In this document: positions 3,232 through 35,762 of the stretch, piece by piece
Layout of the letters: the number at the start of each line of letters is the position of its first letter
Position numbering within the stretch: the stretch's first letter is position 1
Origin: a virus
Lineage: Duplodnaviria > Caudoviricetes
Virus record (IMG/VR): IMGVR_UViG_3300023174_003901
Location: 96,001 to 160,000 of that record
DNA length: 64,000 nucleotides
Reading direction: 5' to 3' (one strand)
Notes under the pieces: generated by a model
What the model was told of the DNA's origin: nothing
Database searches by the model: none
Seen by the model: only the letters and a program-made list of their open reading frames with translations
Translations under genes and position numbers: made by a program

Positions 3232-3232
3232 G

Positions 3233-3565: not shown

Positions 3566-3579
3566 TGTTTGAGTATTTA

Positions 3580-15009: not shown

Positions 15010-15086
15010 TGGTGCGCCCAACAGGACTCGAACCTGTGACCAATCGATTATGAGTCGACTGTTCTAACCAACTGAACTATAGGCGC
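15010..15086 (-). tRNA. tRNA-CAT (Ile2 or elongator Met)
   Basis: GTCGA-CTCATAA-TCGAT, canonical D and T arms, CCA; TTGACA-N16-TATAAT at 15095-15122. Confidence 0.92.
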
Positions 15087-20262: not shown

Positions 20263-20264
20263 GT

Positions 20265-20966
20265 TTAAACCAAGTTGTTGTGTTTGATGTAGTTTAACAC
20301 ATGTTCCGCCCAAAAGCAATGGGCAGCCTCACCAAAATGCCAAGAATCCGGGCGTACAGTAGCAAAACCACTGTTTCTTAGTACTCGATCGTAGGTATTG
20401 TCCGGATCATAAGGTGCCATGTAGTTCACACCCCAGTCGTGACGATTTGTCACACCTGAGAAATCCGAATTACCATTAAAGAACACATGCCGAACATGGT
20501 TGAGTCGGAGTTCACGATGAAACTGCCAGATTTCACTGTGTGCGTGTTGTCTACATTCCTGCCAATCAACCTCGGATATAAACCGCCGATATCGATCCTG
20601 TAGATCTATGGGCACATGATCTACGCCACTAGCATTGACTTGATACCAGGTATTATCATGCAACCATTCTTGACGTTCCCAAGTTGACCATTGTATGACG
20701 ACTAGAGTATCTTCAAAACTATCTTGCTGTTGCAACCAGGCTCGGGTGGTGCGCATGATTCGAGCATTGCTGGAGGCACTTTCTGCATCACAATGTAGTA
20801 TGGCTCTGAGATAGTTGGCCAGATCGCAACCCCAACTCACACGCTCGTTATCTGGATGTGGCCTACGTCCTAGCCCATAATACAAGCCATCATCTTCGGC
20901 AAAGGCATATGAGTTAACTGCTTCGGCAGCGGCAGTATGGCTATCACCGTTGACATACAGTATCAA
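20265..20966 (-). CDS. SGNH/GDSL hydrolase-like protein
   Basis: YVNGDSHT, ASSNARI, DSWHFGEAAH. Confidence 0.7.
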   Translation of the reverse strand: MILYVNGDSHTAAAEAVNSYAFAEDDGLYYGLGRRPHPDNERVSWGCDLANYLRAILHCDAESASSNARIMRTTRAWLQQQDSFEDTLVVIQWSTWERQEWLHDNTWYQVNASGVDHVPIDLQDRYRRFISEVDWQECRQHAHSEIWQFHRELRLNHVRHVFFNGNSDFSGVTNRHDWGVNYMAPYDPDNTYDRVLRNSGFATVRPDSWHFGEAAHCFWAEHVLNYIKHNNLV

Positions 20967-21367
20967 GAGACCTCTGTGCGTCCGTCACCAAGGTCGGTGG
21001 TACGAACATAAATGCCTGATTTCTTGATGGCTTCTTCTTGTTCCCATGTTTCCATTACAACATGGCGGCAAACATTTTGGAACCAGCGGTCCACAATCTC
21101 TGCGTCTGTGTCTTCTTTTTTGATTTGATATCCTGCACGAATAAGATTGAAGATGAACTTGTCATTCCAGTCTAGTTCAAACGCTCCTTGATGCAGATTT
21201 TCAGGATCAATGTCCATGCTTAAAATTGCCACCCAGGGCTCGCCACGTTCAGTGGCCAGTTGCTTTTCAGTCTTGACAGGTTCCTTGGGCTTGGGTTCGG
21301 CCTTGACCTTGGGAGCCGGTTCGGGTTTTTTCTTGAACCAATCACGTATTCCCATCATGTGCCCCAT
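20963..21367 (-). CDS. hypothetical protein
   Basis: 134-aa ORF, coupled. Confidence 0.75.
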   Translation of the reverse strand: MGHMMGIRDWFKKKPEPAPKVKAEPKPKEPVKTEKQLATERGEPWVAILSMDIDPENLHQGAFELDWNDKFIFNLIRAGYQIKKEDTDAEIVDRWFQNVCRHVVMETWEQEEAIKKSGIYVRTTDLGDGRTEVS

Positions 21368-22203
21368 TCGTTTTTAAACAGTGGCACTTGTAGTCTATCA
21401 CTATACCGCCAGCCTTTTCGCATGGCCATCTCTGCCACTGCACGATTGTTAAGGGTATACACCCGCTCAACCCCACCAACAGGCATGACATACACAGGAC
21501 CCGTAAAGCCTGCTGTGCGATACTCCAACACTGCTTGTTCAGCATCTGTTAAATCCTGTTCTGTTGCCACCACTAGTTTCAAGTAAGTATAACCAACTTG
21601 TTCGTACTCACATACCACTTCTGGGCATATTGCTTCTTCCCACCGCTCACCTGAACCAGGAAGTTTAGCACTTACGGAGAATGTGATTTCACGTTGTGCT
21701 CTCCATCTCTGCAGATATTCTTTAAACTCTGGAGTGAGTTTTTGGGTGCCGTTGGTTTCAAATGTGATTTCTTTGAGACCATGCATGCTGTCGTGATCCA
21801 GCAAGTCCGGATAAGCACGTTGCCAACCCAGCAATGGTTCACCACCTGTAATAACCAAGTGTTCTTCTTCCCAACGCCGATGTGGAAGTATCTCCATAAT
21901 ACGATCCACAATAGCATTACTTTCTAACATGGGACTTAGGTCCTTGAAGTCTGGATGCCATGACGCATAACTATCACATCCTGTACTAACCAAAGGCAAG
22001 TCTTCGTACTTCTCAAATGCCCGGATCATTGTATGTGTGGCCGCAAGGTCAGTAGCCTCGTGGCTTGCTTCACCACGTGGCATACCAAAGCCGGCACATT
22101 TAAAGTTGCAACCAAACGTTCTCAAGAACACCGACGGCACACCCATATATCTGCCTTCGCCTTGGATTGAATAAAATAATTCTGCTATTTTGAGTTTACT
22201 CAT
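21355..22203 (-). CDS. queE: 7-carboxy-7-deazaguanine synthase (radical SAM)
   Basis: IAELFYSIQGEG, VFLRTFGCNF, CDS, ITGGEPL, ETNGT, VSAK. Confidence 0.9.
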   Translation of the reverse strand: MSKLKIAELFYSIQGEGRYMGVPSVFLRTFGCNFKCAGFGMPRGEASHEATDLAATHTMIRAFEKYEDLPLVSTGCDSYASWHPDFKDLSPMLESNAIVDRIMEILPHRRWEEEHLVITGGEPLLGWQRAYPDLLDHDSMHGLKEITFETNGTQKLTPEFKEYLQRWRAQREITFSVSAKLPGSGERWEEAICPEVVCEYEQVGYTYLKLVVATEQDLTDAEQAVLEYRTAGFTGPVYVMPVGGVERVYTLNNRAVAEMAMRKGWRYSDRLQVPLFKNEWGT

Positions 22204-22982
22204 ATTTTCTTTGCTTTGATTAATAGATGCCAACCTAGATATTCTTTTACTGCTTCACGCATTTCTTCTGACATGGCCGCAAACCATGGCTCTAGTTCGT
22301 AGATACCTTGTCGGTACTTGGGTACATTATACATGAAACAATGTGCTTGTCTAATCCTTAGGACCTCAAATTTACCTTTTAGTAAATCATAAATTTCTTC
22401 ATTTGAGTAGGCCTGTGCATACGGACAACCTGCTTGTGCCTCAAATTGATCCAGACCTTTTCGAATCATGGCATACTTCCAGGAATTCTTTGCGTATACC
22501 AACATTCTAAACTCACCGTCTGGTTCTAAGGCGGTGTGAATGTTGTCAAGGCAAGTGGTCATGTCCGGATAGTGATGTAGCACACCACATGAATACACCA
22601 GGTCAAACTGGCCCAGGGTGGCCATGCTTTTGGTATCAGCGGCATCCATGTTATGAAACTCACCTTCTAGACCAAACAAGTCAAATCGTTGACGGCTCAT
22701 GGCTACAGACTCTGCTGAAAGATCAATACCCACATACTCAGCACCGTGACGCACAAACTCCACAGCGTCCGAACCAATACCAGATCCTACTTCCAACACA
22801 CGCTTGCCGCGCCATTGATGAAACCCAGCCAAGTCACGCAGGTGTGGTTCTACAAAATATCTACGCTTGCTTATTTCATTCCAGTATTGTTCTGTTCCGG
22901 GCTCACTTAGGCTGTGTTTGACATTACACGGCTGTGTATTCCAATAATTTTTAATACGGTCAATCAGTTGATCATTATTCAC
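22200..22982 (-). CDS. class I SAM-dependent methyltransferase
   Basis: VLEVGSGIG, GIDLS, FDLVYSCGVLHH, LEPDG. Confidence 0.88.
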   Translation of the reverse strand: MNNDQLIDRIKNYWNTQPCNVKHSLSEPGTEQYWNEISKRRYFVEPHLRDLAGFHQWRGKRVLEVGSGIGSDAVEFVRHGAEYVGIDLSAESVAMSRQRFDLFGLEGEFHNMDAADTKSMATLGQFDLVYSCGVLHHYPDMTTCLDNIHTALEPDGEFRMLVYAKNSWKYAMIRKGLDQFEAQAGCPYAQAYSNEEIYDLLKGKFEVLRIRQAHCFMYNVPKYRQGIYELEPWFAAMSEEMREAVKEYLGWHLLIKAKKI

Positions 22983-22983
22983 G

Positions 22984-23901
22984 TTAGGTTTTCCATTGTT
23001 TTAATCGTTTATGCGGGTCAGCAAGATTCATCTTGCACCAGATGTCATATTCGTTTCCTTGATCATCCTTACCTTCAATCCCCCATTTGAAATGATTCAT
23101 GTCATGTCCTAGCGGTGCAAGATGCTGTGACAACTTCATGCACTCGTCAATTCGGGTTTTGCGCCAGGTGACATGATTGAAGTCTCGTGGATTAGATGGA
23201 TTGCCTTCTAGCATGGGACGATTCTTGAACACCTCATCACCATTCTTGCCTGTAAGATCATAACGTTCGTGATCTACCAGTACCGGAATATTTTTAACAA
23301 TATCCAACATCCAGGCCACTTGACTGACCCAGGCATCATTGATCTGATGTGGAGATAAATGTCCAGTGATCTCTACCCACTTGCGGGGCACAATAGGAAA
23401 AATTGCATAAGGATGTTCGTGATTGGTTTCTGCACGTAATAATGCAAACTCACCGTCGTGATCCATGATTGCTTGATCCCAGTCCTGTGTGGTCATCACA
23501 GCATCATCATTCCAGAAAAACATCCAGGCGCCATGGCTGTGTTTGGCCAACTCATTTAGATACTCATTGAGCCTAATGTAGCCCAGACGTTGGAATTGCA
23601 TGGCACTGTACCGTACATCCATGTCGTCCAGGTAAGGTGCAATATTTTCAACAAAGTAATCAATTGTGTCTGTATCGTCGTCGTCAAATGCAATTAACAC
23701 TTCAATACGCTCAGGATTTTTTGCCCGATCGATCAGTGTGTGCAAACACTTTTCCATGGGCTCGGGTCTGCCACGCACAGGCAATAAGATACTGATATCT
23801 ACGGTAGGGTCACGCTCGGGCAAGTTCTGCGTTGTGGACACGATCTCGGGTGATATTTGTTTTTCCAAAGTTTCTCTTTCTAGCAAAATACATGTTTTCA
23901 A
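22984..23901 (-). CDS. GT-A fold glycosyltransferase (family 2-like)
   Basis: ISILLPVRGR, FDDDD, FFWNDD, HINDAW-like QINDAW. Confidence 0.8.
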   Translation of the reverse strand: MKTCILLERETLEKQISPEIVSTTQNLPERDPTVDISILLPVRGRPEPMEKCLHTLIDRAKNPERIEVLIAFDDDDTDTIDYFVENIAPYLDDMDVRYSAMQFQRLGYIRLNEYLNELAKHSHGAWMFFWNDDAVMTTQDWDQAIMDHDGEFALLRAETNHEHPYAIFPIVPRKWVEITGHLSPHQINDAWVSQVAWMLDIVKNIPVLVDHERYDLTGKNGDEVFKNRPMLEGNPSNPRDFNHVTWRKTRIDECMKLSQHLAPLGHDMNHFKWGIEGKDDQGNEYDIWCKMNLADPHKRLKQWKT

Positions 23902-25759
23902 GAAAACGATCCATACTCATGTTTTGATCTTCTACAGTATCGAACATGTATGTACAGGTTTGTTTGATTGGCTCATTGTCCAAGATATAACCAAGAAAAT
24001 CATAATCAAATTCTTGTTTAATTGGCAAAGATTTAAGATCACGATAATCAATCACATAGTTTCGTTGAAACCGCATGAGTTGATCTAGTATGTCCTTGTT
24101 GATATTATAATGACTTTTTACAAATCTGTCAACACTGTCGAACACATAAGCCACTCTATCTTGTTTTTGCATGTACAAGGTAGTACGATGCACTAGATTC
24201 CATCCAAACACTTGAATGTTGCCAATAGGAGGATGATCGATGGATCCTTGTTTGGTCCAGTTGGCAAAATAGTTTCGAGTTTCTTCAAACTGCTCGCGGA
24301 ACCAGTCGTCCTTTTGCACCCACTGATACAGATCATCATAGAACTTGCTGTATTCAATACCGTGTGCTTTGTCCAAGTATCTTGCAATGTATGTGGTCAG
24401 TCCGTTGATGTGGAAAGTTTGAATAAAACTGTTCCAGACCAAGGTATCCAACATTTCTTCCTTGGGAATATCTTTGGTGCTCACAACCACATCCACGCAT
24501 TCGTTAAGATCAGCATCGCCATAACTGCCACTCATGTAATCATACACCGGGACTGAATCAATCTTCCACATGCGTTTTTGTAGCAGATTCATTTCGGCAT
24601 TTTCCAATAACTGTGCTTGCAGTATGTTTATGCCAGTGTGATTGCCAGCACGGAAGATTTTCCAGAATGCATCTTTCCATGATTTAACAGTTTCTCCAGG
24701 CAGGCCAAGAATTAACTCTGTGTACACAGGAATATTGTTGCGATCACACAAGGCAAAGATTTCATCAATCTTGTGCTGATCTAGATTTCTACGTTTGATA
24801 TTTTCCAACACATCATGATCCATTGATTGCACACTAACAGTAAGGCCTTGACCAAAGTTTGGACTTTCTTCAATTAACTTCTTCACAATGTCAACAACTT
24901 CGTTCTTTTGGTTCTTGGCCCAGGTCATTGAGAATGAGGCCAATTTGCCCCATCGCTTTTGCACTTCAATTAACTTGTCCACGATCATGTTGTCACGTTC
25001 TACAAACATGCCAAAGTTGGCATCAGTGATTGTGACAAAGCCACAGTTGGCTCCAATCCAGTCCATCTCGTGGAATACTCGAGTGAGTTCAAACTTCTTG
25101 ACCTTGTTGTAGGTCAAACTGCCCCAGTCACAAAATGTACACTGATAAGGACAACCACGATTGGTTTCCAATGTAGCATTCCAAATCACGTCAGGATTGT
25201 CTTCAATGATCTGATCAAAGATGCCTGTGAGATACGGACTGGGTATTTGGTCCAAGTCATCAATTCTAGCACAGTCTCCGGTGTTGGCCAGGCCAGTGGG
25301 GGTGTTTATCAGTAATCCGGGTATGTGGGTGAAGTCAGTATCAAAGTCTTCCATGATACGTTTGAATGTGATCTCGCCTTCCATCTTGCTGACCAAGTCC
25401 ATGAAAGGTTCTTTTTCAAACAGTTCGGGATCTTCAATGGCAGGCTCTGGACCACCAAATATGATTGTTACACTAGGATTGATTTCTTTGATGCGTCGTG
25501 CTAGTTTGTAGTTGTACCTGTGATTCCAAACATATGTGCTAAAGGCCACAATGTTGTTCTTGGCCAATCGAGGTGCAAGTTCTTCAATGTCTTCTCTACG
25601 CCAGATCAACTGGTCTACAGCCCAGGCCTCACGTATGTGTTCAAAACCCATGGCATAACTCAATATTACTCCTGCTGAATAAGGCAAGTAATAGGCATTG
25701 AATTCCTTGGGGCCTTGTTGAAAGTTAGGCTGTACAAAACTTATAGTTTTTTTGGTCAT
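23810..25759 (-). CDS. B12-binding radical SAM protein
   Basis: ETNRGCPYQCTFC, DANFG, SVQS, ILGLPGET; GGPE cobalamin-domain region. Confidence 0.9.
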   Translation of the reverse strand: MTKKTISFVQPNFQQGPKEFNAYYLPYSAGVILSYAMGFEHIREAWAVDQLIWRREDIEELAPRLAKNNIVAFSTYVWNHRYNYKLARRIKEINPSVTIIFGGPEPAIEDPELFEKEPFMDLVSKMEGEITFKRIMEDFDTDFTHIPGLLINTPTGLANTGDCARIDDLDQIPSPYLTGIFDQIIEDNPDVIWNATLETNRGCPYQCTFCDWGSLTYNKVKKFELTRVFHEMDWIGANCGFVTITDANFGMFVERDNMIVDKLIEVQKRWGKLASFSMTWAKNQKNEVVDIVKKLIEESPNFGQGLTVSVQSMDHDVLENIKRRNLDQHKIDEIFALCDRNNIPVYTELILGLPGETVKSWKDAFWKIFRAGNHTGINILQAQLLENAEMNLLQKRMWKIDSVPVYDYMSGSYGDADLNECVDVVVSTKDIPKEEMLDTLVWNSFIQTFHINGLTTYIARYLDKAHGIEYSKFYDDLYQWVQKDDWFREQFEETRNYFANWTKQGSIDHPPIGNIQVFGWNLVHRTTLYMQKQDRVAYVFDSVDRFVKSHYNINKDILDQLMRFQRNYVIDYRDLKSLPIKQEFDYDFLGYILDNEPIKQTCTYMFDTVEDQNMSMDRFLENMYFARKRNFGKTNITRDRVHNAELARA

Positions 25760-26583
25760 ACTTTATTTAACCGTTCTACGGTCATGGTGGTTACTTGTTT
25801 ATTGGGGTCGTTGGCCCGCATTTTAACCCAAGGATCGCGTGTGCCTTTGCAACAATCTGCAAAGAAACTCATGTCTTGATTTTTTACATCCTGGAGCCAT
25901 TGTGCTAGGGCGGCTGCATCTTGCATTCTAAGTGCCACAACTTCTGGATAATTAAAATCTAACGGATTTGCCTTGTCACCTTCTAATACGGTTCTGCGTT
26001 GATATGTATCGTCATTGTTGGTACCGGTAAGATCAGCACGTTCGTGATCACAATAGATGGGAAGTCTTTCAAAAATGTCTAATGCGTAAGCAATGCAACT
26101 GACCCAGGCATCGTTAAGACTGTGTTGACTGATGTGCCCCAGCGTTTCGTACCATGCACGTGGAATGATAGGAAAGATTGAATAAGGGTGTTCGTTGTGT
26201 GTTATCACACTTAACAGTTTGAATTCGCCAGTTTTGGCACGTATGTATGTGTCCCAACCCTGTGTTTTCATTATAGCATCATCGTTCCAGAAAAACAGCC
26301 ATGGGCTTTTGCTACTTTCGGCCAGGCCGTTTAGATAACGATGCAGATTGTGATAGCCCATGGGTTCAAATATCACAATTTTGTGTGCTATATTGTGTTG
26401 CTCAATCCAGGGTATCACATGATGCAACATGTTTTCAAGTCCTACAGCATCGTTGTTGTCCATTCCGAATAAAATTTCGATAGTGGAAAAGTCGGTAGCC
26501 AAATCATGCAGGCTGAACAGACTACGCATGAGCATGTCTGACCTACCACGTGTGGGCAATAGGATTGAAATATCTATGCTCAT
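25756..26583 (-). CDS. GT-A fold glycosyltransferase, paralog of 22984-23901
   Basis: ISILLPTRGR, FFWNDD, HNEHPYSIFPI, LNDAW. Confidence 0.8.
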   Translation of the reverse strand: MSIDISILLPTRGRSDMLMRSLFSLHDLATDFSTIEILFGMDNNDAVGLENMLHHVIPWIEQHNIAHKIVIFEPMGYHNLHRYLNGLAESSKSPWLFFWNDDAIMKTQGWDTYIRAKTGEFKLLSVITHNEHPYSIFPIIPRAWYETLGHISQHSLNDAWVSCIAYALDIFERLPIYCDHERADLTGTNNDDTYQRRTVLEGDKANPLDFNYPEVVALRMQDAAALAQWLQDVKNQDMSFFADCCKGTRDPWVKMRANDPNKQVTTMTVERLNKV

Positions 26584-27095
26584 GCAAACAAATCTTCATT
26601 CCACTCGCGATGACCTTCTCGGAAAGCCATGTTGCTCTGTGTTTCACGCACTTCCACACGGTAGCACCAGAGCCGCTTGGCTTCACCTTCTCCCCAATAG
26701 TCAGGAATGTAAACCCCGTTCACAAACTTGTACAATTGATCAGCAAGCCCTTCGCATCCAAGTCGGGGTAATATAGTTAGTTTGGCAATGTTGCGACGTT
26801 GCATTTCTTTGTAGAATTCTAGTTCAGGATCATCTTCGGCAACTAACAATGTGTGATCAAATTGATCTTCAAGAACGTGTTTGAGTTCTTTGAGACCACC
26901 GTAATCAGCGGCCCAGTTACGCACATCCAGATGGTCGGTGCCAAAGTAGAACTTCATTGAGAAACTGTAACCGTGGATCAGATTGCAGTGGCTGTCGGCT
27001 CGCCACTGTCTATAGGCGCATGGAAATGCGTCGTGGTATTCTTTGGTACTGGTGTATTTGTACTGGCGAGGAATTGGTATTTGTATATGATTCAT
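26580..27095 (-). CDS. queD: 6-carboxytetrahydropterin synthase
   Basis: HCNLIHGYS, DYGGLK, FDHT, CEGLA, VEVRET; T-fold PTPS pattern. Confidence 0.88.
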   Translation of the reverse strand: MNHIQIPIPRQYKYTSTKEYHDAFPCAYRQWRADSHCNLIHGYSFSMKFYFGTDHLDVRNWAADYGGLKELKHVLEDQFDHTLLVAEDDPELEFYKEMQRRNIAKLTILPRLGCEGLADQLYKFVNGVYIPDYWGEGEAKRLWCYRVEVRETQSNMAFREGHREWNEDLFA

Positions 27096-27104
27096 GCTGT
27101 TTCT

Positions 27105-27180
27105 CCTATGTTAAATTATAGCATAGGCGGCAGAGTTTGTAAAGCGGGAGTGACGCCAAGACCGCTTAAAGAAATATTTA
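27105..27180 (-). promoter_or_regulatory. queD leader: promoter, RBS-occluding hairpin and pseudoknot-like stem
   Basis: TTTACA-N17-TATAAT (27115-27143); CCTATG/CATAGG hairpin over AGGAG; AAGCGG/CCGCTT stem; TAAATA at 27175-27180. Confidence 0.55.
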
Positions 27181-27579
27181 TGCTGGCTGTTTGTAGCCAC
27201 CAGTTTTGTAGTTCTGTTGTTCGGGAATTACGCCACGCACACCACCTACAGGGTCTGTACAGTCTCCAGTTCTACGAGGGATCAAATGAATATGTGGGTA
27301 CATTACTGTTTGTCCAGCGGCAGGACCTTGATTGATGCCAATGTTGTAAGCATCACACTCGCCCAGGTTGACCATATCCTCACCGGCCCGTTGAGCACTA
27401 TAAAATGCCTCATTGATCACTTCAGTGGTGTTGTAGTTGGGCACAAATAACAAATGACCGTTGGTGACCGGAAAGCGATCGCGGAACACAGTGACATGAA
27501 AGTCCGACAGTTCTTCTACTCGCAAGTCCCAAGGTGCCGCTCCAGCGGCGTGTGCTGATTCTAGTGTTTCGTATTTCAT
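27178..27579 (-). CDS. HIT family hydrolase
   Basis: FPVTNGHLLFVP, GQTVMYPHIHLIP. Confidence 0.9.
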   Translation of the reverse strand: MKYETLESAHAAGAAPWDLRVEELSDFHVTVFRDRFPVTNGHLLFVPNYNTTEVINEAFYSAQRAGEDMVNLGECDAYNIGINQGPAAGQTVMYPHIHLIPRRTGDCTDPVGGVRGVIPEQQNYKTGGYKQPA

Positions 27580-27689
27580 AGTTCAATCAAGTGATATTGC
27601 GAATGTGGATAGTGTTGTTGTAACCATTCCAACAGGCCAGGTTCCACAGGCAGTTGAATGCTTCCATCGCGGTTGGAGATGCAACTCAT
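27576..27689 (-). CDS. small hypothetical protein (37 aa)
   Basis: MSCISNRDGSIQLPVEPGLLEWLQQHYPHSQYHLIEL*; ATGA overlaps at both ends. Confidence 0.55.
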   Translation of the reverse strand: MSCISNRDGSIQLPVEPGLLEWLQQHYPHSQYHLIEL

Positions 27690-27880
27690 TTTTTTCTCGT
27701 TTTAAGTTCGTGTATATCTTGTTTCAAACTCTCACTGAGATTTTTGTAATAGTCAAATTCCTTGCCTATTTCTTCTTCAACCTCTCGACGAGTTTTACGA
27801 TAACCTTGCCAATCTCGTTCTTGGGCATAAGTCATGCCACCTAAAAATCCTGCCACTATACACGCAATTTCTAATAGCAT
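27686..27880 (-). CDS. hypothetical protein with N-terminal membrane anchor
   Basis: 64 aa; hydrophobic N-terminus then coiled coil. Confidence 0.6.
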   Translation of the reverse strand: MLLEIACIVAGFLGGMTYAQERDWQGYRKTRREVEEEIGKEFDYYKNLSESLKQDIHELKTRKK

Positions 27881-27883
27881 AAG

Positions 27884-28585
27884 TTATCTCGGTGCAAACT
27901 CTTGTTGCAGTTTGATGTTGTCAAAAAATTCTTTCTTCACGCTTGGGTCGGTCTTGAATGCACCATGAAGTACTGTGGTTTGGGTGAGACTACTGTGTGC
28001 CATAATACCGCGATTCTCACAACATCCGTGGGTAGCCTGTATATAAACCGCAACATCGGATGACCCAGTGGCAACCCCAATTTCTCGAGCAATATCCATG
28101 CATAGTTCTTCTTGTAAGGTTCCTCTCCGAGCACACCATTGAGCAATACGTGTGTACTTGGACAGACCAATGAGTTTTGGTCCAGCAATAATTCCAATAT
28201 AAGCCACACCCGACACAGGTTGATGATGATGCGAGCACATGCTTTTGAGTTCAGAACGAACAACCAACATGCCTTCGTACGCACCGTCTGTATCATTTGG
28301 GAAAGCCGTAGCGTTTGGTGACTGTTCATATCTACCTGCCATTATTTCGTTGAAGTACATCTTGGCCAAGCGTTTTGCTGTGCCTTTGGAGTTGGGATCA
28401 TTTTCTCTGTCAATCAATAATGTATCTAGCACACGTTCAAATGCTACAGTTGCTTCGTCAATCAGTTGCGATTTTGTTTCATCATCCACATAGTCACTGA
28501 TGTTGTCTCCAGCCCAAAAACGTTTACCGCTAGACTTCATTTGTTCACGTATTGCTTGTGATAAGTTTTTACTTGTGTCTGTCAT
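27884..28585 (-). CDS. folE: GTP cyclohydrolase I
   Basis: SMCSHH, IGLSK, QEEL, HGCCENRG. Confidence 0.95.
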   Translation of the reverse strand: MTDTSKNLSQAIREQMKSSGKRFWAGDNISDYVDDETKSQLIDEATVAFERVLDTLLIDRENDPNSKGTAKRLAKMYFNEIMAGRYEQSPNATAFPNDTDGAYEGMLVVRSELKSMCSHHHQPVSGVAYIGIIAGPKLIGLSKYTRIAQWCARRGTLQEELCMDIAREIGVATGSSDVAVYIQATHGCCENRGIMAHSSLTQTTVLHGAFKTDPSVKKEFFDNIKLQQEFAPR

Positions 28586-28586
28586 C

Positions 28587-29183
28587 TTAATCCTTGATTG
28601 TGATAGTTCTTAAATCTTGATAGTCAACATGTCTTGGTTCAGGACAAAATTCTTTAAGACCTTCCAACAATGCCAAACCTTGAATGGCTTCTTCTGGTGT
28701 AGGTTTATAATGATATCCAACTCGAAATTCATGTTGTGCAATCCAGGGTGTGATATTTAGGTCACGACCATCATACCGCATACGAATTATTGCATCATAT
28801 GCTGTGCGGTCATCTAGTATTATAGCACCACCACGGCCTATATGTAAAGGCTTATCATGTCCGAAACTTACACATTGCATGGTTCCGGAACGATACATAT
28901 TCCGTTCTAACCGCCTTGCACTATCCCAAATTCGTGTGTTTAGAAAAGGATACTCGCCTACCCAACGTTGCCAAGCATGATCCGAGTATGCATATTTGAT
29001 CCCTAACTTGTGCATGAGCATGGGAATACTTAGGTAAGTGTAAGGAGTGAACTCACATTCCTGAATCTGATCGTGTCGCAGGCACAATTCGATTGCGTGT
29101 GTACAACAATCGGTCATGATGGCATACGGTGCTCCAGTGAACTCTGCCAGTTCGTGTTCAAACTTTAGTATCTTATCGAACAT
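28587..29183 (-). CDS. DegT/DnrJ/EryC1/StrS aminotransferase-like protein (short)
   Basis: FEHELAEFTGAPYAI, CTHAIEL, SFGHDKPLHIGRGGAI. Confidence 0.8.
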   Translation of the reverse strand: MFDKILKFEHELAEFTGAPYAIMTDCCTHAIELCLRHDQIQECEFTPYTYLSIPMLMHKLGIKYAYSDHAWQRWVGEYPFLNTRIWDSARRLERNMYRSGTMQCVSFGHDKPLHIGRGGAIILDDRTAYDAIIRMRYDGRDLNITPWIAQHEFRVGYHYKPTPEEAIQGLALLEGLKEFCPEPRHVDYQDLRTITIKD

Positions 29184-30120
29184 ACCATGCCCAAGAATGG
29201 CGGATTATGTCATCTAGTATGTGATGTCGCCACTTGCCTACAACGGATGCAAACTTTGCATCGCTGGCTGTTAACACAGCAGGATCTCCTTCACGACGAG
29301 CACCGACTATGACATTTAATGGCTGTTGTGTTTCATCTAGCGCGGCTTCAATAATGCCTCGATTGCTTGTGCCCATGTTAGAACCAAGATTGTAGACACC
29401 AGGTTCGATCTTTCGATCCAGGGCCAGCACATGAGCGCCGGCAATGTCTTCTACGTGTACATAGTCACGCACACATGTTCCATCTTCTGTGGGGAAATCA
29501 TCGCCGTTTAACACAAACTCTTTTTGATCTCTAATGCTTTCTAGCACACGAGCAATGATGTGTGTGGCACCAGGTGCCTGTCCGTGCCTGCCAAGGCTGT
29601 CGGCACCGCAGGCATTGAAGTAACGAAACGCCACATAGTCCAGACCGTAGGCTCGATGATAACTCTCTAAGATTTGTTCTACCATGAGTTTGCTTTGACC
29701 ATAAGGTGAAACAGGCTCACAAGGATCTACTTCCTGACAAGGATTTATAATAGGTTCACCATAGGTGGCAGCACTTGAACTAAAGATAAATCTTGTTCTG
29801 GGTAGACTATTTTTAACAATGTCCAACAGTCGCAAGGTTTTGACCACGTTGTTGTTGTAATAGTCAGCAGGATTCTTCATACTAGGACCCACAAGACTAG
29901 TACCAGCACAATGTATAATAGCATCTGGTTGTTTGCCGATGATCCAACTCAAGGCCACATCTGACGCAAAGTCCTGATACAAAAACTTATCGCATACTCC
30001 CAACAGGTGCTTGGGAGGTTCTTGTCGATCAATGCCATAAACTGTATGTCCTGCATCTTTCAACTGCAACATGATTTGGCCACCAATGTAGCCGCCTGAT
30101 CCAGTGACTATAACGTTCAT
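29173..30120 (-). CDS. galE: UDP-glucose 4-epimerase
   Basis: TGSGGYIG, FSSSAATYG, YGQSK, FRYFNACGA, GTCVRDYVHV. Confidence 0.92.
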   Translation of the reverse strand: MNVIVTGSGGYIGGQIMLQLKDAGHTVYGIDRQEPPKHLLGVCDKFLYQDFASDVALSWIIGKQPDAIIHCAGTSLVGPSMKNPADYYNNNVVKTLRLLDIVKNSLPRTRFIFSSSAATYGEPIINPCQEVDPCEPVSPYGQSKLMVEQILESYHRAYGLDYVAFRYFNACGADSLGRHGQAPGATHIIARVLESIRDQKEFVLNGDDFPTEDGTCVRDYVHVEDIAGAHVLALDRKIEPGVYNLGSNMGTSNRGIIEAALDETQQPLNVIVGARREGDPAVLTASDAKFASVVGKWRHHILDDIIRHSWAWYVR

Positions 30121-31298
30121 TAGTATTTGGCCCCTGCTATGTGATTACGATACCTATTGCCTGAACGGTTCCACTTCTCGCCTGAACCTTGGATGATATC
30201 AACAATACGATCAACTGTGCCGTTGTTCCAGTCACTGATACGACCCATACTAGTATGTGGCGAAACCAACAACGGATCTAACTTGTTCATAGCATCAGCC
30301 ATGCTCCAAGGAACATAAAGACGTTCCGGATCATTGGCAAAGGTCTCAGGGAAACTACGATAAGCAGGGTAAAGAACATTACACCCTAGAGTATCAGCCT
30401 CAGAGACGGTGTTGCTGACCCAATCTTGAAGGGCACAATTAAAGAGACAACGAGTATCATTAAGCAAAGCGTAGTATTCATTTTTGTTCAAATTCTCATG
30501 TATTTCTAACAAGCCGGCGGCTGCCAATGCTCGAGCACGATACACATAGTCTGGATTGTTTGATCTCAGTGGACCACCTTGAAAGATAGCAAACTTCACA
30601 CTAGGGTCGGTTGCCTGATACTGTTCAGCCAGGTCCATGAAGAAGCCGGGCTGTTTCTCTTGATCAAATCTTGCGGCAAAGCCCACACGCAGTTGACGCT
30701 CGTGGAATAGTCGAATGTTGTTGGCACCGTCAATGCGTTCCAGAACTTCTGCCTTGCCAAATGCTAGGCCACTAATATTGTATATAGGAGCATGCCATCC
30801 AGCAATGCGCATATGAGCAACCATCTCTTCGTTCGTGGCGAGAACTCCTGTCGCAAACTCATTAACCATTTGTTCGTAGAGCCCCATCCATTTTGCCATA
30901 CCCCATACATGTACGAAATCATCAGGATCAATGGACTGAGCAAGACACCTAACATATACACGGGGACGTTGATCAGCAGTAACTTGATCAAGAATATAGG
31001 GCAGGCTCTCGATTCCAGGTTGAAACATGTCTTCAAAGTAGATAACATCTTCATTGGTAACTTCTCCGTTCTTCATCAACTGAACCAGGTTCATCATCTG
31101 GCTCATGCCAAAGTAACTGCGACCATGTGCATCCAACACTTGCCCTACACTGATAGCCTGTGTGTTGTCAATAGTGACACCTGGAACATAAACCACGTCC
31201 AGACCTCTACGGTCAAAAACTCTTCGGTTCCACTCTGTCAGTTGTAGTGTGTAGCGGCCTTGATAACTTTCAAGACCCATGTAGTATAGTTTTCTCAT
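30120..31298 (-). CDS. GT-B fold glycosyltransferase
   Basis: FAARFDQEKQP, QDWVSNTVSEA, GCNVLYP; start MRKLYY. Confidence 0.75.
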   Translation of the reverse strand: MRKLYYMGLESYQGRYTLQLTEWNRRVFDRRGLDVVYVPGVTIDNTQAISVGQVLDAHGRSYFGMSQMMNLVQLMKNGEVTNEDVIYFEDMFQPGIESLPYILDQVTADQRPRVYVRCLAQSIDPDDFVHVWGMAKWMGLYEQMVNEFATGVLATNEEMVAHMRIAGWHAPIYNISGLAFGKAEVLERIDGANNIRLFHERQLRVGFAARFDQEKQPGFFMDLAEQYQATDPSVKFAIFQGGPLRSNNPDYVYRARALAAAGLLEIHENLNKNEYYALLNDTRCLFNCALQDWVSNTVSEADTLGCNVLYPAYRSFPETFANDPERLYVPWSMADAMNKLDPLLVSPHTSMGRISDWNNGTVDRIVDIIQGSGEKWNRSGNRYRNHIAGAKY

Positions 31299-31576
31299 CA
31301 GAACCTCGATGCAAAGCGACGTGTGTCTTCGTCCCACATGTTCTTGGCAGTCTTGCCCTGGACATGTTTATTAAACTGCTGGAACGCATAACTGCGGAAG
31401 TTATACAAGTCCGCTTCGTTGAAGCGATATCCGTAGTCTTGTACAAACTCGCGATAGCGATCCAGATCCTCCCATACTTGTTGAGTTCGAGCATTGAGTT
31501 TGATTTGTGGCTTGGCCATTTTACTTCCTTTAAAAATAATAACTAGACATTTGATTGTTGGCACGCCATTGATCAT
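31298..31576 (-). CDS. hypothetical protein
   Basis: ORF abutting downstream ATG; start may be MAKPQ. Confidence 0.65.
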   Translation of the reverse strand: MINGVPTIKCLVIIFKGSKMAKPQIKLNARTQQVWEDLDRYREFVQDYGYRFNEADLYNFRSYAFQQFNKHVQGKTAKNMWDEDTRRFASRF

Positions 31577-32168
31577 GCAGGCGTTGTGCTGGTGCTAGAT
31601 CAATGTTGATACCGAGAAAACTATTTAGACGATCCCATGTGCCATTGTAATTTATAACACTATGCCATAGATCTGTCAATGGAAACGAGAATATATCACA
31701 CTCTTGACCGGTGAAATAAGTGCTGTACATTTGTGGTTGATACAAAAAATATTGTTCTTCATGTAGATAATAGTCATGACTTTGTTGGCCCAATCGTTTC
31801 TGACGATGTTGTAACACTCGACGATCCTGCGGAGTATCGATGTTTACAATCACAAATCTTTTGTTTTGTATATTGTTGATTGTTTCTCTAAATGGAGACA
31901 GTTCACCAAAGTGTCCGTGTAGAATAAAATCTCCCGAACTAGACAATGCATCAGCCATGCGATATTGATTCATGTTACGACCGGATGTGCTGTGAACTTC
32001 TCTATTGCCAGTATCATATGGCTCAAGATTGAGATCACTGCTGTTGGCAAATGCATCACTTAGACACAAGAGATTTTTGAGATGATTGCCACCTCCCGAA
32101 GGAGGGTAAGCAATAATGGTGGCTTGCACGTTAGATCTTGATTGAAAGATTAGGGCGAGAAAGTTCAT
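31530..32168 (-). CDS. hypothetical protein, possible sulfotransferase-like P-loop
   Basis: AYPPSGGGNHLKNLL; probable GTG start near 32129. Confidence 0.55.
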   Translation of the reverse strand: MNFLALIFQSRSNVQATIIAYPPSGGGNHLKNLLCLSDAFANSSDLNLEPYDTGNREVHSTSGRNMNQYRMADALSSSGDFILHGHFGELSPFRETINNIQNKRFVIVNIDTPQDRRVLQHRQKRLGQQSHDYYLHEEQYFLYQPQMYSTYFTGQECDIFSFPLTDLWHSVINYNGTWDRLNSFLGINIDLAPAQRLHDQWRANNQMSSYYF

Positions 32169-32583
32169 ACTTGATCAAGGCGCCATTCTCACCATCTTCG
32201 GCCACCTCAATCCACACTGCACGGTCAGGATATCGACCAGCAATTTCTGCGTACAAGTCATCAGCCATCATTTCACAACTTTTATAGTCAAGTTGTAAGA
32301 TGCCGTCTTTGTACAAATTTTCTAACCAACGTTTGAATTGAATAAACTCAATGTCGCGGTCGTTGTGTAGCACATCAATCCATACTCTAAAGTGGAATAT
32401 ATGACGATGTGGGGTACCAAGGAAACTCACATCATATTCATCACCTGTAGCCAGTGCAGAATCAGTAGCCGCCGCTGGATAGCAATGTATGCCTTCCTTG
32501 CGGAATGTAACCCAGATTTTACGTTCTGCGTGACTCATGATTCGCTCACGCTGTTCTGTTAGTGCTTGCTCTCGTTGGTTCAT
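32131..32583 (-). CDS. second QueD/PTPS-like T-fold protein
   Basis: EGIH...PHRH metal-ligand pattern, IEFIQFK, LDYKSCEM, IEVAEDG; no Cys at the QueD nucleophile position. Confidence 0.6.
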   Translation of the reverse strand: MNQREQALTEQRERIMSHAERKIWVTFRKEGIHCYPAAATDSALATGDEYDVSFLGTPHRHIFHFRVWIDVLHNDRDIEFIQFKRWLENLYKDGILQLDYKSCEMMADDLYAEIAGRYPDRAVWIEVAEDGENGALIKYELSRPNLSIKI

Positions 32584-32987
32584 GCTTTTAATGACTCCAT
32601 GGTAATAATTTTGCCAAGTTCTTCGCCAATGTCTTGATCACTGGAGATCACATGCAGTTCAAAAAGGCTGTCACCGGTGCGTCGGTCATTACGACGAGTT
32701 TCAACCACAGTACCACCATTGGCACGATACACTTCAAATCTAATACCCGTGGCACTGATTCTAATTTCATCTGGACGTTCTGATATCTGGATGTCTTCTT
32801 GATGATGATCGCTCATGCTCCAAGTGACCAAATCTTTGATCATTCGTTTAAACATATTGGGTCCTTTTGTTTGATATTTTCTTGTTGATTTACCTAAGGT
32901 AGCATCATAGCCAAAAATTGTGTTTATTCTATGTTTATGTTGTTTAGTGCTAACTTTGGCACCCATGATTGCTGGATATGTTGCCAT
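32580..32987 (-). CDS. hypothetical protein
   Basis: 135-aa ORF coupled to neighbours. Confidence 0.65.
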   Translation of the reverse strand: MATYPAIMGAKVSTKQHKHRINTIFGYDATLGKSTRKYQTKGPNMFKRMIKDLVTWSMSDHHQEDIQISERPDEIRISATGIRFEVYRANGGTVVETRRNDRRTGDSLFELHVISSDQDIGEELGKIITMESLKA

Positions 32988-33514
32988 TAGATTACTGAAT
33001 CCTCACGATAGTCATCCCACGATGTAAATGTTCTTCGACTCATTAGACTGTGGAGACTGTGACACCAAACTCCAGGATTGGTAGCATCAAAGTCCTTGTC
33101 ATCTATTTTTAACATTGTATTATAATTCCACAGTTTTGTATAGGGTAGACTTACCCGAATCTGCGGAACAAAGTTTCTGTAGTCGCAAAGTGGGCCATCA
33201 TGAAACTCGTCCACGTGAGTAATTGGAATGTCCAGACTACACAAGTGACCGTCACGTAGAAATGGTTCAATCATGCTTTCCCATCGTTGCCATTCCAGTC
33301 TGTTGCTAGGATGAAAACTGTGATTGGCACCAAAGAAGATGTGTTTGATATGTTTGGTGTTGTCTGTGTGTGAATTGTGTTCGGCTAGTAGTCGAACAAT
33401 TTCGAGTACAGGTTGCCATCCCACAACAAACAAAGTGTGTCGGCCAAATGCAGGGGTGCGTTCTACTTCTGTTCCTACAAAAAAGTTTACGTCTTTGTGT
33501 CCGTTTCGATTCAT
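32987..33514 (-). CDS. hypothetical protein directly downstream of dpdA
   Basis: 175 aa, ATGA overlap. Confidence 0.75.
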   Translation of the reverse strand: MNRNGHKDVNFFVGTEVERTPAFGRHTLFVVGWQPVLEIVRLLAEHNSHTDNTKHIKHIFFGANHSFHPSNRLEWQRWESMIEPFLRDGHLCSLDIPITHVDEFHDGPLCDYRNFVPQIRVSLPYTKLWNYNTMLKIDDKDFDATNPGVWCHSLHSLMSRRTFTSWDDYREDSVI

Positions 33515-35088
33515 TTCTTTTGGTCCTGTTCCAGTTGATCCAATGCTGATGTGTCTAATTCTACACTATCATCGTCGGTTTCTGCAACCTCAACTTCTTC
33601 GAAAAACGTATTAAATTGCGGTCTTGCACTGATGGTCTTGTCACCTTTGAATCCTCTAGTGCCCACAATGTCCATCCAATATCTTGAGTAATGTTTGATA
33701 ATGGCTTCGGATTCCTCACGATCTGGTGTGGCAAATATGGCATCCACAATGTCCTTGAAGTGTGCATGGTCTCCAGTACGACCTTTGGTACCTTGGTTCC
33801 ACATCATAGCCGGCCACGAACCTGAATCGTATGTGCGATTGGCACGTTGAACTGATTCTAAATGTGTCCAAACATTGTGACCCATAAGCAAAGCATAACT
33901 AAAACTATCCCAACTTGTCTTGCCTTCTTTGCCAATCTTGTTTAGGTCACCTGGTTTGTAAATACAGATGTCTTTCATCTGTAGGTGTTGGCTAATTGGT
34001 GACTCATCAAAGTGACCAATCAATCCATCTGCTACCACTGCCTGTCCATATGGACGAGTATCTGCGGCATACTTCTTGTCATCCACAATAGGACTCATAC
34101 GATAGCACCACTTGTCGTTGTGTGGCAAGTCAATGTGATGATATACCTGTCCATTGGCAGTGGCAAGGAATGGACTGGCACAATCAAAGGAAATAGTAAA
34201 AGACGGATTAACGTATTTTCTAACTGCTCTTTGGATCACAGTGAGTAGCACAGCCCATTCCAACTTTGATGTGCCCAAGAAGTGCATCCAATCGTGTAAA
34301 CCTTCTTGTAGCAAACCGTCATGACGTAGTGCTACCAGTCTGCGCAAAACTAAATCAACGTCACACATGTTTTGACCACCCATGCCCCAGCCATCAAAGT
34401 GACGACCTGGATACTTGGCAGGATCGCAGTAGCCTTTCATAAGTTCATACCATGCATCTGCGTTGGGATGATTGTCACCTTGCAACACATTCAAGAACTT
34501 GGCACCACCGTTATCTTTGCCTTTACGGTGCTTGATAAAGTATTCGTTGTTGTACTTGGTGGCCGCAACTGCTTGGTCCAAGGTTTTAATTTGGCAAGCA
34601 TCTGACGCTTTCTTGTCATGAATAACCCAGGTAGGAATATCGAGCCCCATGCCATATGTGCTGATTGAGTCTAACCAAGTCAACACTTGTGAACGTTTCT
34701 TTTGTGCTTTGGCACAACCCGAATTGGCCTTCCAGTCACCTTCCCACAGGCCCTTGGCAATCTGGAAACCACCTGAGTCGCCTAGCATGATGGTATTGGG
34801 GTCTCGATTGCGAACCATGTCCTCTGACCAGTCTTGTTTGGTCAAATCTAAGTTGGCATGACCACCTGAGTATAGACTCCACTTGTAAGGGAACAGGCCC
34901 TTCTGCGAATTAAGCCAGTTCATCATTTCCATGTCCTGCATGCCTGCTGGCAATCTAGAAGGATCCACATAAGGACCATTCACAGGATCACGTTGCTTGC
35001 CTACAAAAGTAGCATAGAAGCCAGAGATGGCTGGTAAGAACACAGCATAGTCTAGTTGTTTGGCAGTTAAATTGTCTTGTTCACTCAT
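33511..35088 (-). CDS. dpdA: TGT-superfamily transglycosylase, DpdA-like
   Basis: LGDSGGFQ, LDIP, VLQG, GMGG, HFLG, SFDCASP; lacks the C-terminal CxCxxC of tRNA-acting TGT; sits with folE/queD/queE. Confidence 0.8.
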   Translation of the reverse strand: MSEQDNLTAKQLDYAVFLPAISGFYATFVGKQRDPVNGPYVDPSRLPAGMQDMEMMNWLNSQKGLFPYKWSLYSGGHANLDLTKQDWSEDMVRNRDPNTIMLGDSGGFQIAKGLWEGDWKANSGCAKAQKKRSQVLTWLDSISTYGMGLDIPTWVIHDKKASDACQIKTLDQAVAATKYNNEYFIKHRKGKDNGGAKFLNVLQGDNHPNADAWYELMKGYCDPAKYPGRHFDGWGMGGQNMCDVDLVLRRLVALRHDGLLQEGLHDWMHFLGTSKLEWAVLLTVIQRAVRKYVNPSFTISFDCASPFLATANGQVYHHIDLPHNDKWCYRMSPIVDDKKYAADTRPYGQAVVADGLIGHFDESPISQHLQMKDICIYKPGDLNKIGKEGKTSWDSFSYALLMGHNVWTHLESVQRANRTYDSGSWPAMMWNQGTKGRTGDHAHFKDIVDAIFATPDREESEAIIKHYSRYWMDIVGTRGFKGDKTISARPQFNTFFEEVEVAETDDDSVELDTSALDQLEQDQKK

Positions 35089-35762
35089 TGGTTGAATACC
35101 TGTTTTATTATTTCATAATCGCGAGCATAGGCTTTTTGTACTCGCTCACACAGTTCGGGTCTGGTATTTAGACGATGTTGCAAAAATTCATGAAGTTTTT
35201 TTGTGTCTGGATTGTCATTACCATCGTTGCGATCAAGATTTATTATTAAGTCAAGTCCTAACCCGGATGCAAAATTAGCATCAAAATCTTTGTCAAGCAT
35301 AAAATAACGTCTTGTAAGACCAGGCTTTATATGTTCATAAAAATCATGTTGAGGCCACACATGATCATCAAATCTAAACACATTGTCAAATATCAATCGT
35401 TCAGTAGTTTGATTGTAACAACTAATAAAATCATCAGCAGTCATACTATAATCTTCTGCCCCTTCGAGCATGCCCGGAAACACAGGACCATTGGGTCCTA
35501 CCGGACACAACACATAAGTTTTGAGATATTGACTCATACCACTAACCCATCTTGTCAACGGGTCTCTCAGGATCACAACTATCTCTTTCAAATCAAGCCA
35601 GGTGTCATTGGTTACCACAGCAGTCTTCCACTTGAATCTAGTGGTCCAATCTAGCACATAACTACTGGCATTTTTTGGTATATTAACAATGAATTTAGTA
35701 TTGTCAGGACTTATCATTCCTGAACACTCACCAAAACCTCGATTTGATAATGCTAGGTTCAC
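35085..35762 (-). CDS. sulfotransferase family-like protein
   Basis: VNIPKNASS, ILRDPLTRWVSG, HVWPQ. Confidence 0.7.
   Translation of the reverse strand: MNLALSNRGFGECSGMISPDNTKFIVNIPKNASSYVLDWTTRFKWKTAVVTNDTWLDLKEIVVILRDPLTRWVSGMSQYLKTYVLCPVGPNGPVFPGMLEGAEDYSMTADDFISCYNQTTERLIFDNVFRFDDHVWPQHDFYEHIKPGLTRRYFMLDKDFDANFASGLGLDLIINLDRNDGNDNPDTKKLHEFLQHRLNTRPELCERVQKAYARDYEIIKQVFNQ

Follow-up and report, generated by a model that had tools for sequence, protein, structure and literature searches.

To our knowledge, all known deazaguanine modifications of DNA carry small groups at C7 (cyano, amido, aminomethyl with its methyl and formyl forms, carboxy, and hydrogen). In Cellulophaga phage phiST, which encodes FolE, QueD, QueE, DpdL and DpdA3 in the absence of QueC, all guanine (G) is replaced by 2'-deoxy-7-deazaguanosine (dDG) (PMC10516641). 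DpdL, a QueD paralog recognizable by the signature LxxxHRHxF, has been proposed to act as a decarboxylase of 7-carboxy-7-deazaguanine (CDG) (Cui, Hutinet et al., NAR 2023, PMC10516641), and phiST CGPG_00067 and ACP17 gp125 are the two DpdL proteins named in that work (PMC10516641). Here we describe a locus with a comparable gene set in a 64,000-nucleotide stretch of phage DNA (the window, meaning the whole stretch analysed), corresponding to bases 96001-160000 of a 200,246-bp IMG/VR record (IMGVR_UViG_3300023174_003901, G000; CheckV completeness 58%). All the genes discussed lie on the minus strand and are bounded by a family-B DNA polymerase (PolB) and a 5'-3' exonuclease/RNase H (19240-20319). 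It is quite possible, though short of probable, that in this phage G is replaced by a 7-deazaguanine made through the DpdL route and that the base is then decorated with a strain-variable, methylated sugar.

The original prediction, made from the sequence without database searches, had described positions 21355-35088 as a co-oriented 7-deazaguanine cluster lacking queC, queF and arcS and interleaved with sugar, radical S-adenosylmethionine (SAM) and methyl-transfer genes. All the genes that it named are present, and family searches confirmed FolE, QueD, QueE, GalE, one GT2 glycosyltransferase, the B12 radical SAM enzyme, the SAM-dependent methyltransferase and the HIT-family protein. The absence of QueC, QueF and ArcS domains also held in a genome-wide search of the 200,246-bp record and of its relatives G001 (89% complete) and G002 (93%). 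The missing QueC is no anomaly. Three conserved open reading frames (ORFs) had been missed, designated here as the DpdL homolog, u175 and s73, and the lack of QueC is explained because the DpdL homolog fits the published FolE-QueD-QueE-DpdL-DpdA pattern. As far as sequence can tell, the gene set is the published QueC-independent pattern leading to dDG, and this gene set, together with the fold of the putative transglycosylase, upheld the idea of a QueC-less 7-deazaguanine system.

The DpdL homolog carries the sequence LGTPHRHIF, an instance of the LxxxHRHxF signature, in place of the CxxxHGH of QueD. This motif aligns with those of the DpdL proteins of phiST, ACP17, PA5oct and BUCT-ZZ01, and tblastn searches retrieved phiST CGPG_00067 (8e-8) and ACP17 gp125 (2e-37). 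In Vibrio phage Bakedbeans, the DpdL-like domain constitutes the C-terminal third of a 383-amino acid (aa) protein (gp176, L096:9254-10405), apparently fused to an N-terminal domain. The CxxxHGY motif of QueD was considered as an anomaly and rejected, since it is shared with the QueD proteins of phiST, ACP17 and BUCT-ZZ01 and is thus usual in this group. QueE matched the NCBIfam QueE equivalogs with E-values from 1e-15 to 1e-10, under their cut-offs. Its cluster cysteines appear to be arranged as CxxxC followed, after some 39 residues, by a third cysteine, with an insertion between the second and the third, unlike the CxxxCxxC of Bacillus subtilis QueE and the Cx14CxxC of the Escherichia coli enzyme.

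Signals for PF06508 at 195.6 kb of the record (C1) and in relatives G002 and G005 were evaluated as possible QueC and rejected, as they stem from PP-loop proteins of the nicotinamide adenine dinucleotide (NAD) synthase family (PF02540, ~1e-47). In this genome, the NAD-synthase-family protein is encoded far from the cluster (G000:C1:195656-195844; L001:991-1767). In G002 and G005, the gene for this NadE-like protein (L084:1006-1761 and L085:1009-1776) lies directly downstream of queE and is followed by one for uridine diphosphate (UDP)-glucose dehydrogenase. The protein could amidate or activate the CDG carboxylate, or just serve NAD synthesis.

The candidate for the insertion of the deazapurine into DNA is a 525-aa protein. 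Its AlphaFold2 model, based on an alignment of 50 representatives, presented a predicted local distance difference test (pLDDT) score of 90 and a predicted template modelling score of 0.90. In a Foldseek search against the PDB, the best 50 matches to this model were all tRNA-guanine transglycosylases (TGTs; E 2e-7, probability 1.0), and VIA-align superimposed it on bacterial, human and archaeal TGTs over ~305 residues (Z 17-18, root-mean-square deviation 4.4). Profile alignment of the family with E. coli Tgt by hhalign (90.6% probability, E 1.3e-6) paired GDSGGFQ with TDSGGFQ, LDIPT with FDECT and SFDCASP with MFDCVMP, as well as the QG and GG motifs. Residues D104, S105, G107 and D302 are invariant among the 50 representatives and D150 is conserved in at least 90% of them, so that both catalytic Asp motifs (DSGGFQ and FDC) and the substrate-binding Asp are retained in the family.

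The relationship is distant at the sequence level. The family profile retrieved no TGT among PDB sequences, BLASTP revealed no similarity to phiST DpdA3 (259 aa), and against the TGT of Xanthomonas phage BUDD it aligned the DSGG motif alone. Matches to PF01702 (TGT) and PF23859 (DpdA) are lacking in the whole genome as well as in the 525-aa protein. The protein fails the curated models and therefore belongs to an unmodelled subfamily within the TGT superfamily. The original assignment as DpdA/TGT-like hence stands on fold and hhalign evidence and finds no counterpart among family models, and on this evidence we accept the protein as a DpdA-like enzyme of the TGT superfamily.

The family is very large and mostly viral (at least 6955 homologs are close, and clustering at 50% identity leaves 918 representatives), and its gene is the best conserved of the operon (~80% identity in relatives). 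The family hidden Markov model (HMM) reaches the DpdA of ACP17 (gp123, 5e-8) and the TGT-annotated gene of BUDD. Homologs adjoin QueE in the Pseudomonas jumbo phage PA5oct, and in Vibrio phage 2.275.O a homolog adjoins QueF, a preQ transporter, QueC, FolE and QueD. The DNA of PA5oct has been described to resist cleavage at G-containing restriction sites and to be open to attack by nucleases directed at hypermodified DNA (PMC12191111). From this resistance, the fold, the catalytic motifs and the gene context, we infer that the 525-aa protein exchanges bases in DNA.

A salient feature of the locus is a GT-B glycosyltransferase of the GT4 family. The protein by itself falls under all Pfam thresholds (PF00534, E 0.19; PF13524, E 0.073) and was also missed by the genome scan, and the original GT-B assignment is sustained through its family profile, which matched in PDB sequences the C-terminal nucleotide-sugar-binding domain of GT4 enzymes (WlaC/PglH 1.2e-6, a GT1-family protein 6e-6, WbaZ-1 1e-5, GlgM, MshA and PimA). 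Some of the homologs bear PF00534, and a contig of 330 kb codes for an identical GT4. In the T4-like Synechococcus cyanophage BUCT-ZZ01, a homolog with 67% identity closes a series that reads QueE, phosphoribosyltransferase, QueD, FolE, a GT1-like gene, DpdA, DpdL and GT4. The GT4 HMM identified further instances in PA5oct (DpdA-like, glycosyltransferase, DpdL), ACP17 (DpdA, glycosyltransferase, DpdL, QueE), BUDD (glycosyltransferase, TGT, DpdL, QueE) and Phosso (DpdL, glycosyltransferase), and, with an E-value of 2e-79, beside DpdL/DpdA in Burkholderia phage BCSR5, which was not part of the training set. Seven lineages thus have the GT4 gene no more than one or two genes away from DpdL or DpdA, namely this clade, PA5oct, ACP17, BUDD, BCSR5, Phosso and BUCT-ZZ01. 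No GT4 was detected near the DpdA-like gene of Vibrio phage 2.275.O, which bears QueC and QueF.

In these gene neighbourhoods, GT4 accompanies DpdL in seven lineages, and phiST, the one lineage in which plain dDG is the known product, lacks it. The co-occurrence of glycosyltransferases and DpdA across phages, which the original prediction had proposed to check, hence proved positive for GT4. The comparison supports the view that the sugar genes are linked to the deazaguanine cluster both physically and in evolution, and the cross-lineage linkage of GT4 weakens the alternative that the sugar genes glycosylate virion or host surfaces.

The gene order of the operon is conserved in ~80 IMG/VR relatives, running from PolB through a methyltransferase-like gene, u240, the DpdA-like gene, u175, DpdL, s73 and GT4 to GalE, mini-DegT, FolE, HIT, QueD, the glycosyltransferase or glycosyltransferases, the methyltransferase and QueE. 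In ~45 relatives, GT4, GalE and mini-DegT are fixed between DpdL and FolE. The identity of GalE in relatives is 45-92%. An amino sugar, as contemplated in the original prediction, is poorly founded. The short-chain dehydrogenase/reductase (SDR) that might have been a 4,6-dehydratase passes the GalE equivalog cut-off and was rejected as such, and the aminotransferase is truncated. The latter does match PF01041 and retains the SFxxxK Schiff-base motif with its pyridoxal phosphate (PLP) lysine, in agreement with the proposed DegT type. At 198 aa, however, its alignment with 382-aa aminotransferases spans residues 32-64 and 175-257 of the latter. The N-terminal ~30 residues, a portion of the large domain and all of the C-terminal domain are missing, so that the full two-domain DegT/DnrJ/EryC1 PLP fold (~360-400 aa) is not present. 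Its length is maintained at 192-203 aa across relatives, which indicates a real gene and not a fragment. Coordinates and family assignments are collected in Table 1.

Table 1. Features of the window discussed in the text, listed along the operon and followed by its surroundings.
Feature	Position	Strand	Evidence and remarks
QueE (CDG synthase), phage type	21355-22233	-	phrog_2076 2.2e-51; 48% identical to BUCT-ZZ01 QueE
Class I SAM-dependent methyltransferase	22200-22982	-	PF08242 8e-17; PF13649, PF08241 ~1e-16
GT2-family (GT-A) glycosyltransferase	22984-23901	-	PF00535 8.6e-7, 29.5 bits vs cut-off 23.3
Cobalamin-dependent radical SAM C-methyltransferase, TokK/CysS-like	23810-25759	-	PF02310 + PF04055
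Putative glycosyltransferase, weak assignment	25756-26583	-	phrog_14945 glycosyltransferase 1.2e-11
QueD (6-carboxytetrahydropterin, CPH4, synthase), phage CxxxHGY type	26580-27095	-	PF01242 5e-14
HIT-family protein	27178-27579	-	PF01230 3.5e-12; HinT-like 1.5e-10; 50-89% identity in relatives
FolE (guanosine triphosphate, GTP, cyclohydrolase I)	27884-28585	-	PF01227 2e-38; ~80% identity across relatives
mini-DegT, 198-aa truncated PLP-fold protein	28587-29183	-	PF01041 5e-14, profile positions 162-241 of 360 only
GalE, UDP-glucose 4-epimerase	29173-30120	-	TIGR01179 equivalog 275.5 bits vs cut-off 262.3; PF01370 5e-54
GT4-family (GT-B) glycosyltransferase	30120-31337	-	True start probably 31298 (392 aa)
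s73, conserved unannotated 73-aa ORF	31298-31519	-	Ends at likely GT4 start
u212, strain-variable insert in DpdL/GT4 slot	31530-32168	-	One other relative only, L025, 25% identity
DpdL homolog, T-fold QueD paralog, predicted CDG decarboxylase, 150 aa	32131-32583	-	LxxxHRHxF motif; phrog_17812 1.5e-33
u135 ORF	32580-32987	-	27-77% identity, often absent in relatives; no family match
u175, conserved protein, 175 aa	32987-33514	-	Start overlaps DpdA-like stop
DpdA-like DNA-guanine transglycosylase candidate, 525 aa	33511-35088	-	TGT fold, long divergent subfamily
Conserved 240-aa protein (u240)	Within pair 35759-36481 / 36478-37647, PolB to DpdA-like	-	phrog_12062
389-aa protein	Second ORF of pair 35759-36481 / 36478-37647, PolB to DpdA-like	-	Weak methyltransferase domain
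Family-B DNA polymerase (PolB)	37644-40304	-	Single 886-aa ORF
Transfer-messenger RNA (tmRNA), two-piece permuted betaproteobacterial type	3205-3616	-	Rfam beta_tmRNA 120 bits, tmRNA_permuted 118 bits; ARAGORN tag ANDEQFALAA
tRNA array, ~25 genes, most amino acids	4854-10297 and 15013-15086	-	

The remaining tailoring genes are more variable. Of the two GT-A glycosyltransferases originally proposed, the GT2 enzyme is identified by PF00535 and shows 38-67% identity in some relatives; the other is supported by the PHROG match only (1e-11), with no match in Pfam, NCBIfam or PDB sequences. The B12 radical SAM enzyme, in which an N-terminal B12-binding domain accompanies the radical SAM core characteristic of class B, is most similar to TokK (7kdx, 2e-76) and CysS (9n1b, 4e-45), both of which are iterative C-methylases. 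It also matches the KedN5 family (1.2e-66) with a score of 225 that lies below the cut-off of 700, and its subfamily is therefore left unassigned. Its gene was found in this record and its closest relative (L005) only, and is absent from L020, L027, L045, L053 and L067. For the SAM-dependent methyltransferase, the nearest NCBIfam models are O-methyltransferases.

Two of the small ORFs are widely conserved. Homologs of u175 were identified in 63 distinct relatives (44-90% identity), and ACP17 encodes one (gp122) directly upstream of its DpdA. The structural model of u175 (pLDDT 86) had no Foldseek match in the PDB at E <= 0.001 and only sub-0.9 fungal matches in a language-model atlas, and the best score of an exhaustive VIA search (Z 6.1, QueE) fell among STAS domains and within noise. 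Homologs of s73 are present in 54 relatives (51-94% identity), invariably between DpdL and GT4, and none was found in the cultured phages compared. Either u175 or s73 could be among the enzymes missing from the attempted reconstitution of the DpdL route in E. coli that is discussed below.

The slot between DpdL and GT4 is occupied by u212 in this record, by a 2-oxoglutarate (2OG)-Fe(II) oxygenase in L004 and L005, and by six other unrelated inserts elsewhere, and is empty in about half of the 45 relatives. Apart from the 2OG oxygenase, these inserts could not be assigned to clear families, with weak hints of GDSL hydrolases. The oxygenase (PF13640 1.7e-14; L005:12869-13456 and L004:11585-12172), found in the closest relatives and absent from most others, is a candidate for generating a glycosyl acceptor. 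L005 holds an additional radical SAM enzyme, L067 yet another, and L020 a cytidylyltransferase, while in G002 the inserted genes encode two SDRs, a full-length DegT, a split transketolase, three methyltransferases (one of them FkbM) and a phosphoribosyltransferase. A phosphoribosyltransferase gene lies beside QueE in G001, G002, L027 and BUCT-ZZ01 (L093:8011-8559; L027:9548-10078; L087:7093-7554), an indication that in some phages the pathway branches at the level of nucleotides. Two types of QueD alternate among close relatives, and even relatives sharing 95% identity differ in their tailoring cassettes. The picture is one of cassettes shuffled about a fixed core. The set found here, with its two extra glycosyltransferases, O-methyltransferase and TokK/CysS-like methylase, is the richest in the comparison.

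The surroundings of the operon are best read as the replication module of an uncultured freshwater jumbo phage. The window occurs in metagenomes of lakes and fresh water that come from at least four studies, and no near-identical DNA was found in cultured phages. The genomes of relatives reach 317-347 kb, which identifies the source as a jumbo phage, and the type of its tmRNA hints at a freshwater betaproteobacterium as the host. The PolB gene, uninterrupted here, is divided into two parts by a ~316-aa ORF in L020 (L020:39-3079) and L045 (L045:4002-8098), and that of PA5oct is interrupted by an annotated homing endonuclease. For the 240-aa protein encoded between PolB and the DpdA-like gene, the annotations of the homolog differ: sliding clamp in Phosso, structural protein in PA5oct. 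The tRNA array includes tRNAs with GUN anticodons, namely Asp(GTC), Asn(GTT), His(GTG) and Tyr(GTA), which are natural TGT substrates.

Taken together, these genes would define a four-step pathway. FolE, QueD and QueE would convert GTP into CDG, according to the established functions of these families, the DpdL homolog would produce 7-deazaguanine from CDG, as predicted in the literature, and the TGT-fold protein would exchange G in DNA for the deazapurine. We consider these three steps, taken jointly, to be quite likely. GT4 might then transfer a hexose, probably galactose or a relative, with GalE providing a donor of the UDP-galactose type, to the deazapurine either before or after its insertion. 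In this strain, extension of the sugar could fall to the GT2 enzyme together with the PHROG-type glycosyltransferase, and its methylation to the O-methyltransferase-like enzyme and the TokK/CysS-like methylase; an iterative C-methylase could build branched alkyl groups. Candidate acceptors would be the CDG carboxylate, the exocyclic N2 (as in huimycin), the electron-rich C7 or C8 through a C-glycoside, or a hydroxyl that some unrecognised enzyme installs. What points to a sugar step on the DNA base is conserved gene linkage alone, and we propose this step tentatively, as something that may well be wrong. Hydroxymethyl-pyrimidines were rejected as targets of the glycosyltransferases, since no thymidylate-synthase-like hydroxymethylase was found in G000, G001 or G002, a search that did not extend to ThyX or to TET/JBP-type enzymes.

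Several points weigh against the pathway or its sugar step. Glycosyltransferases are common in jumbo phages for other ends, and the record is only 58% complete. The 525-aa protein has no match in Pfam (including PF01702 and PF23859), PHROG, NCBIfam or phmmer searches, and no conserved cysteine cluster corresponding to the Zn site (CxCxxC...H) is visible in its family consensus. The decarboxylation of CDG by DpdL is a literature prediction that has never been demonstrated, and the expression of DpdL and DpdA from phiST and ACP17 in E. coli did not produce dDG, for which 'other unknown enzymes' were invoked (PMC10516641). Searches of the literature on DpdL, ACP17 and glycosylated deazaguanine turned up no description of a deazapurine in DNA that bears a sugar. 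Moreover, dDG lacks a hydroxyl or amine at C7 that could serve as an evident glycosyl acceptor, with the 2OG oxygenase restricted to the closest relatives, and the GT4 HMM detected no match within 10 kb of DpdL in four lineages (phiST, RHph_I1_18, Bakedbeans and Ahp1). These last two points favour the possibility that the product is plain dDG, as in phiST, and that GT4, GalE, mini-DegT and the other glycosyltransferases and methylases act elsewhere, on virion proteins, host envelope glycans or a metabolite. Plain dDG is the sole product proven for a DpdL-type cluster, full replacement of G by dDG has also been reported in a Vibrio phage, and the variation of the tailoring cassette resembles that of surface-glycan loci, although strong variation of tailoring genes between relatives is also the expectation for a modification under diversifying selection. 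Against plain dDG stands the proximity of GT4 to DpdL or DpdA in seven lineages that otherwise share little, the BUCT-ZZ01 homolog among them. In ACP17, GT4 is the only sugar gene and lies inside a DpdA-GT4-DpdL-QueE series, and the operon of the window is placed in the replication module and not with structural genes. We regard plain dDG as a serious possibility that is nonetheless rather doubtful.

Two further explanations would dispense with modified DNA or with base exchange. The fold of the 525-aa protein is that of a tRNA-guanine transglycosylase, and the window itself encodes tRNAs for Asp, Asn, His and Tyr that such an enzyme could act on; a deazaguanine, perhaps glycosylated as in mannosyl- and galactosyl-queuosine, might then be installed at position 34 of GUN-anticodon tRNAs, including those of the phage. 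DNA was preferred as the target because PolB and RNase H flank the operon and because the DNA of PA5oct, which bears a homolog, shows G-specific restriction resistance. The family is moreover tied by HMM to phage DpdA proteins, a DpdL-type cluster modifies DNA in phiST, and the failure of the Pfam TGT model and the lack of conserved Zn-binding cysteines in the consensus also speak against a tRNA enzyme, making this explanation highly improbable. Only marginally less so is a route in which a deazapurine nucleotide or a free glycoside of the tubercidin or huimycin kind is made before replication and then either used by the polymerase or set free as a small molecule, with the TGT-like protein as an accessory. 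The phosphoribosyltransferases beside QueE in other phages would suit such a route, as would the CDG-based phosphoribosyltransferase pathways of actinomycetes and their decoration of deazapurines by GT-B enzymes and methyltransferases. No phosphoribosyltransferase was found, however, in this 200-kb record, and the TGT-fold gene, which such a route would relegate to an accessory, is the one that relatives conserve best, with both catalytic aspartates kept.

The DpdL route and dDG are already known; no description of the long TGT-fold subfamily or of the GT4 linkage was found in the literature searched. Even in the absence of a sugar, the analysis delineates a DpdA subfamily of long TGT-fold proteins that escapes the current Pfam models. 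Returning to a sugar-decorated deazaguanine, it is possible, if with somewhat greater doubt for so broad a claim, that the virion DNA of this widespread freshwater clade and of PA5oct, ACP17, BUDD, BCSR5, Phosso and BUCT-ZZ01 bears a glycosylated 7-deazaguanine whose sugar is diversified among strains by swapped cassettes. The pair of DpdL and GT4 occurs in at least six cultured phages, and the prediction is therefore directly testable. In lakes the family is highly abundant: homologs of the transglycosylase and of GT4 each number in the thousands. If true, a glycosylated deazapurine would represent a new chemical class of DNA base and the first glycosylated purine analogue in DNA, and camouflage against restriction by means of sugars would no longer be confined to pyrimidines but reach purines as well. 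Such a base could also account for the failure of DpdL and DpdA on their own to yield dDG in E. coli and for the detection of PA5oct by nucleases directed at bulky hypermodifications, and such phages might resist the newly found defence glycosylases specific for 7-deazaguanine.

Among described systems, phiST shares with this locus the biosynthetic core devoid of QueC and QueF, a DpdL with LxxxHRHxF, a QueD of the CxxxHGY type and a TGT-superfamily protein in a cluster adjoining the DNA polymerase (PMC10516641). Its transglycosylase is about half as long as the 525-aa protein and bears no BLAST similarity to it, and phiST lacks GT4, GalE, mini-DegT, u175 and s73 and possesses a MazG that is absent here. 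PA5oct encodes the long type of DpdA (30% identity), followed by a GT1-like gene, DpdL (54%) and QueE, within a common PolB to RNase H synteny, and the Acidovorax phage ACP17 presents a u175-like gene, DpdA, a GT4-like gene, DpdL and QueE. Unlike the present locus, neither has GalE, mini-DegT, the extra glycosyltransferases, the methyltransferases or the B12 radical SAM enzyme, and no published identity for their modification was found in searchable papers. In the biosynthesis of huimycin and dapiramicin, a GT-B enzyme and a SAM-dependent methyltransferase act on a free 7-deazapurine base (bioRxiv 10.64898/2026.04.15.718813). The combination of a deazapurine pathway (preQ0) with a GT-B glycosyltransferase (HuiG) and an O-methyltransferase (HuiC) resembles the one found here, whereas the products are bacterial small molecules that are made through QueC and preQ0, with no transglycosylase involved, and that lie outside nucleic acids. 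Glycosylated pyrimidines, such as the glucosylated 5-hydroxymethylcytosine (5hmC) of T4 and the base J-like, 5hmC and 5-hydroxycytosine glycans, likewise combine a non-canonical base with phage glycosyltransferases whose sugars vary between related phages. In those systems the sugar is attached through a hydroxymethyl or hydroxyl handle, whereas the base predicted here is a purine analogue with no known handle, in a phage without a thymidylate-synthase-like hydroxymethylase.

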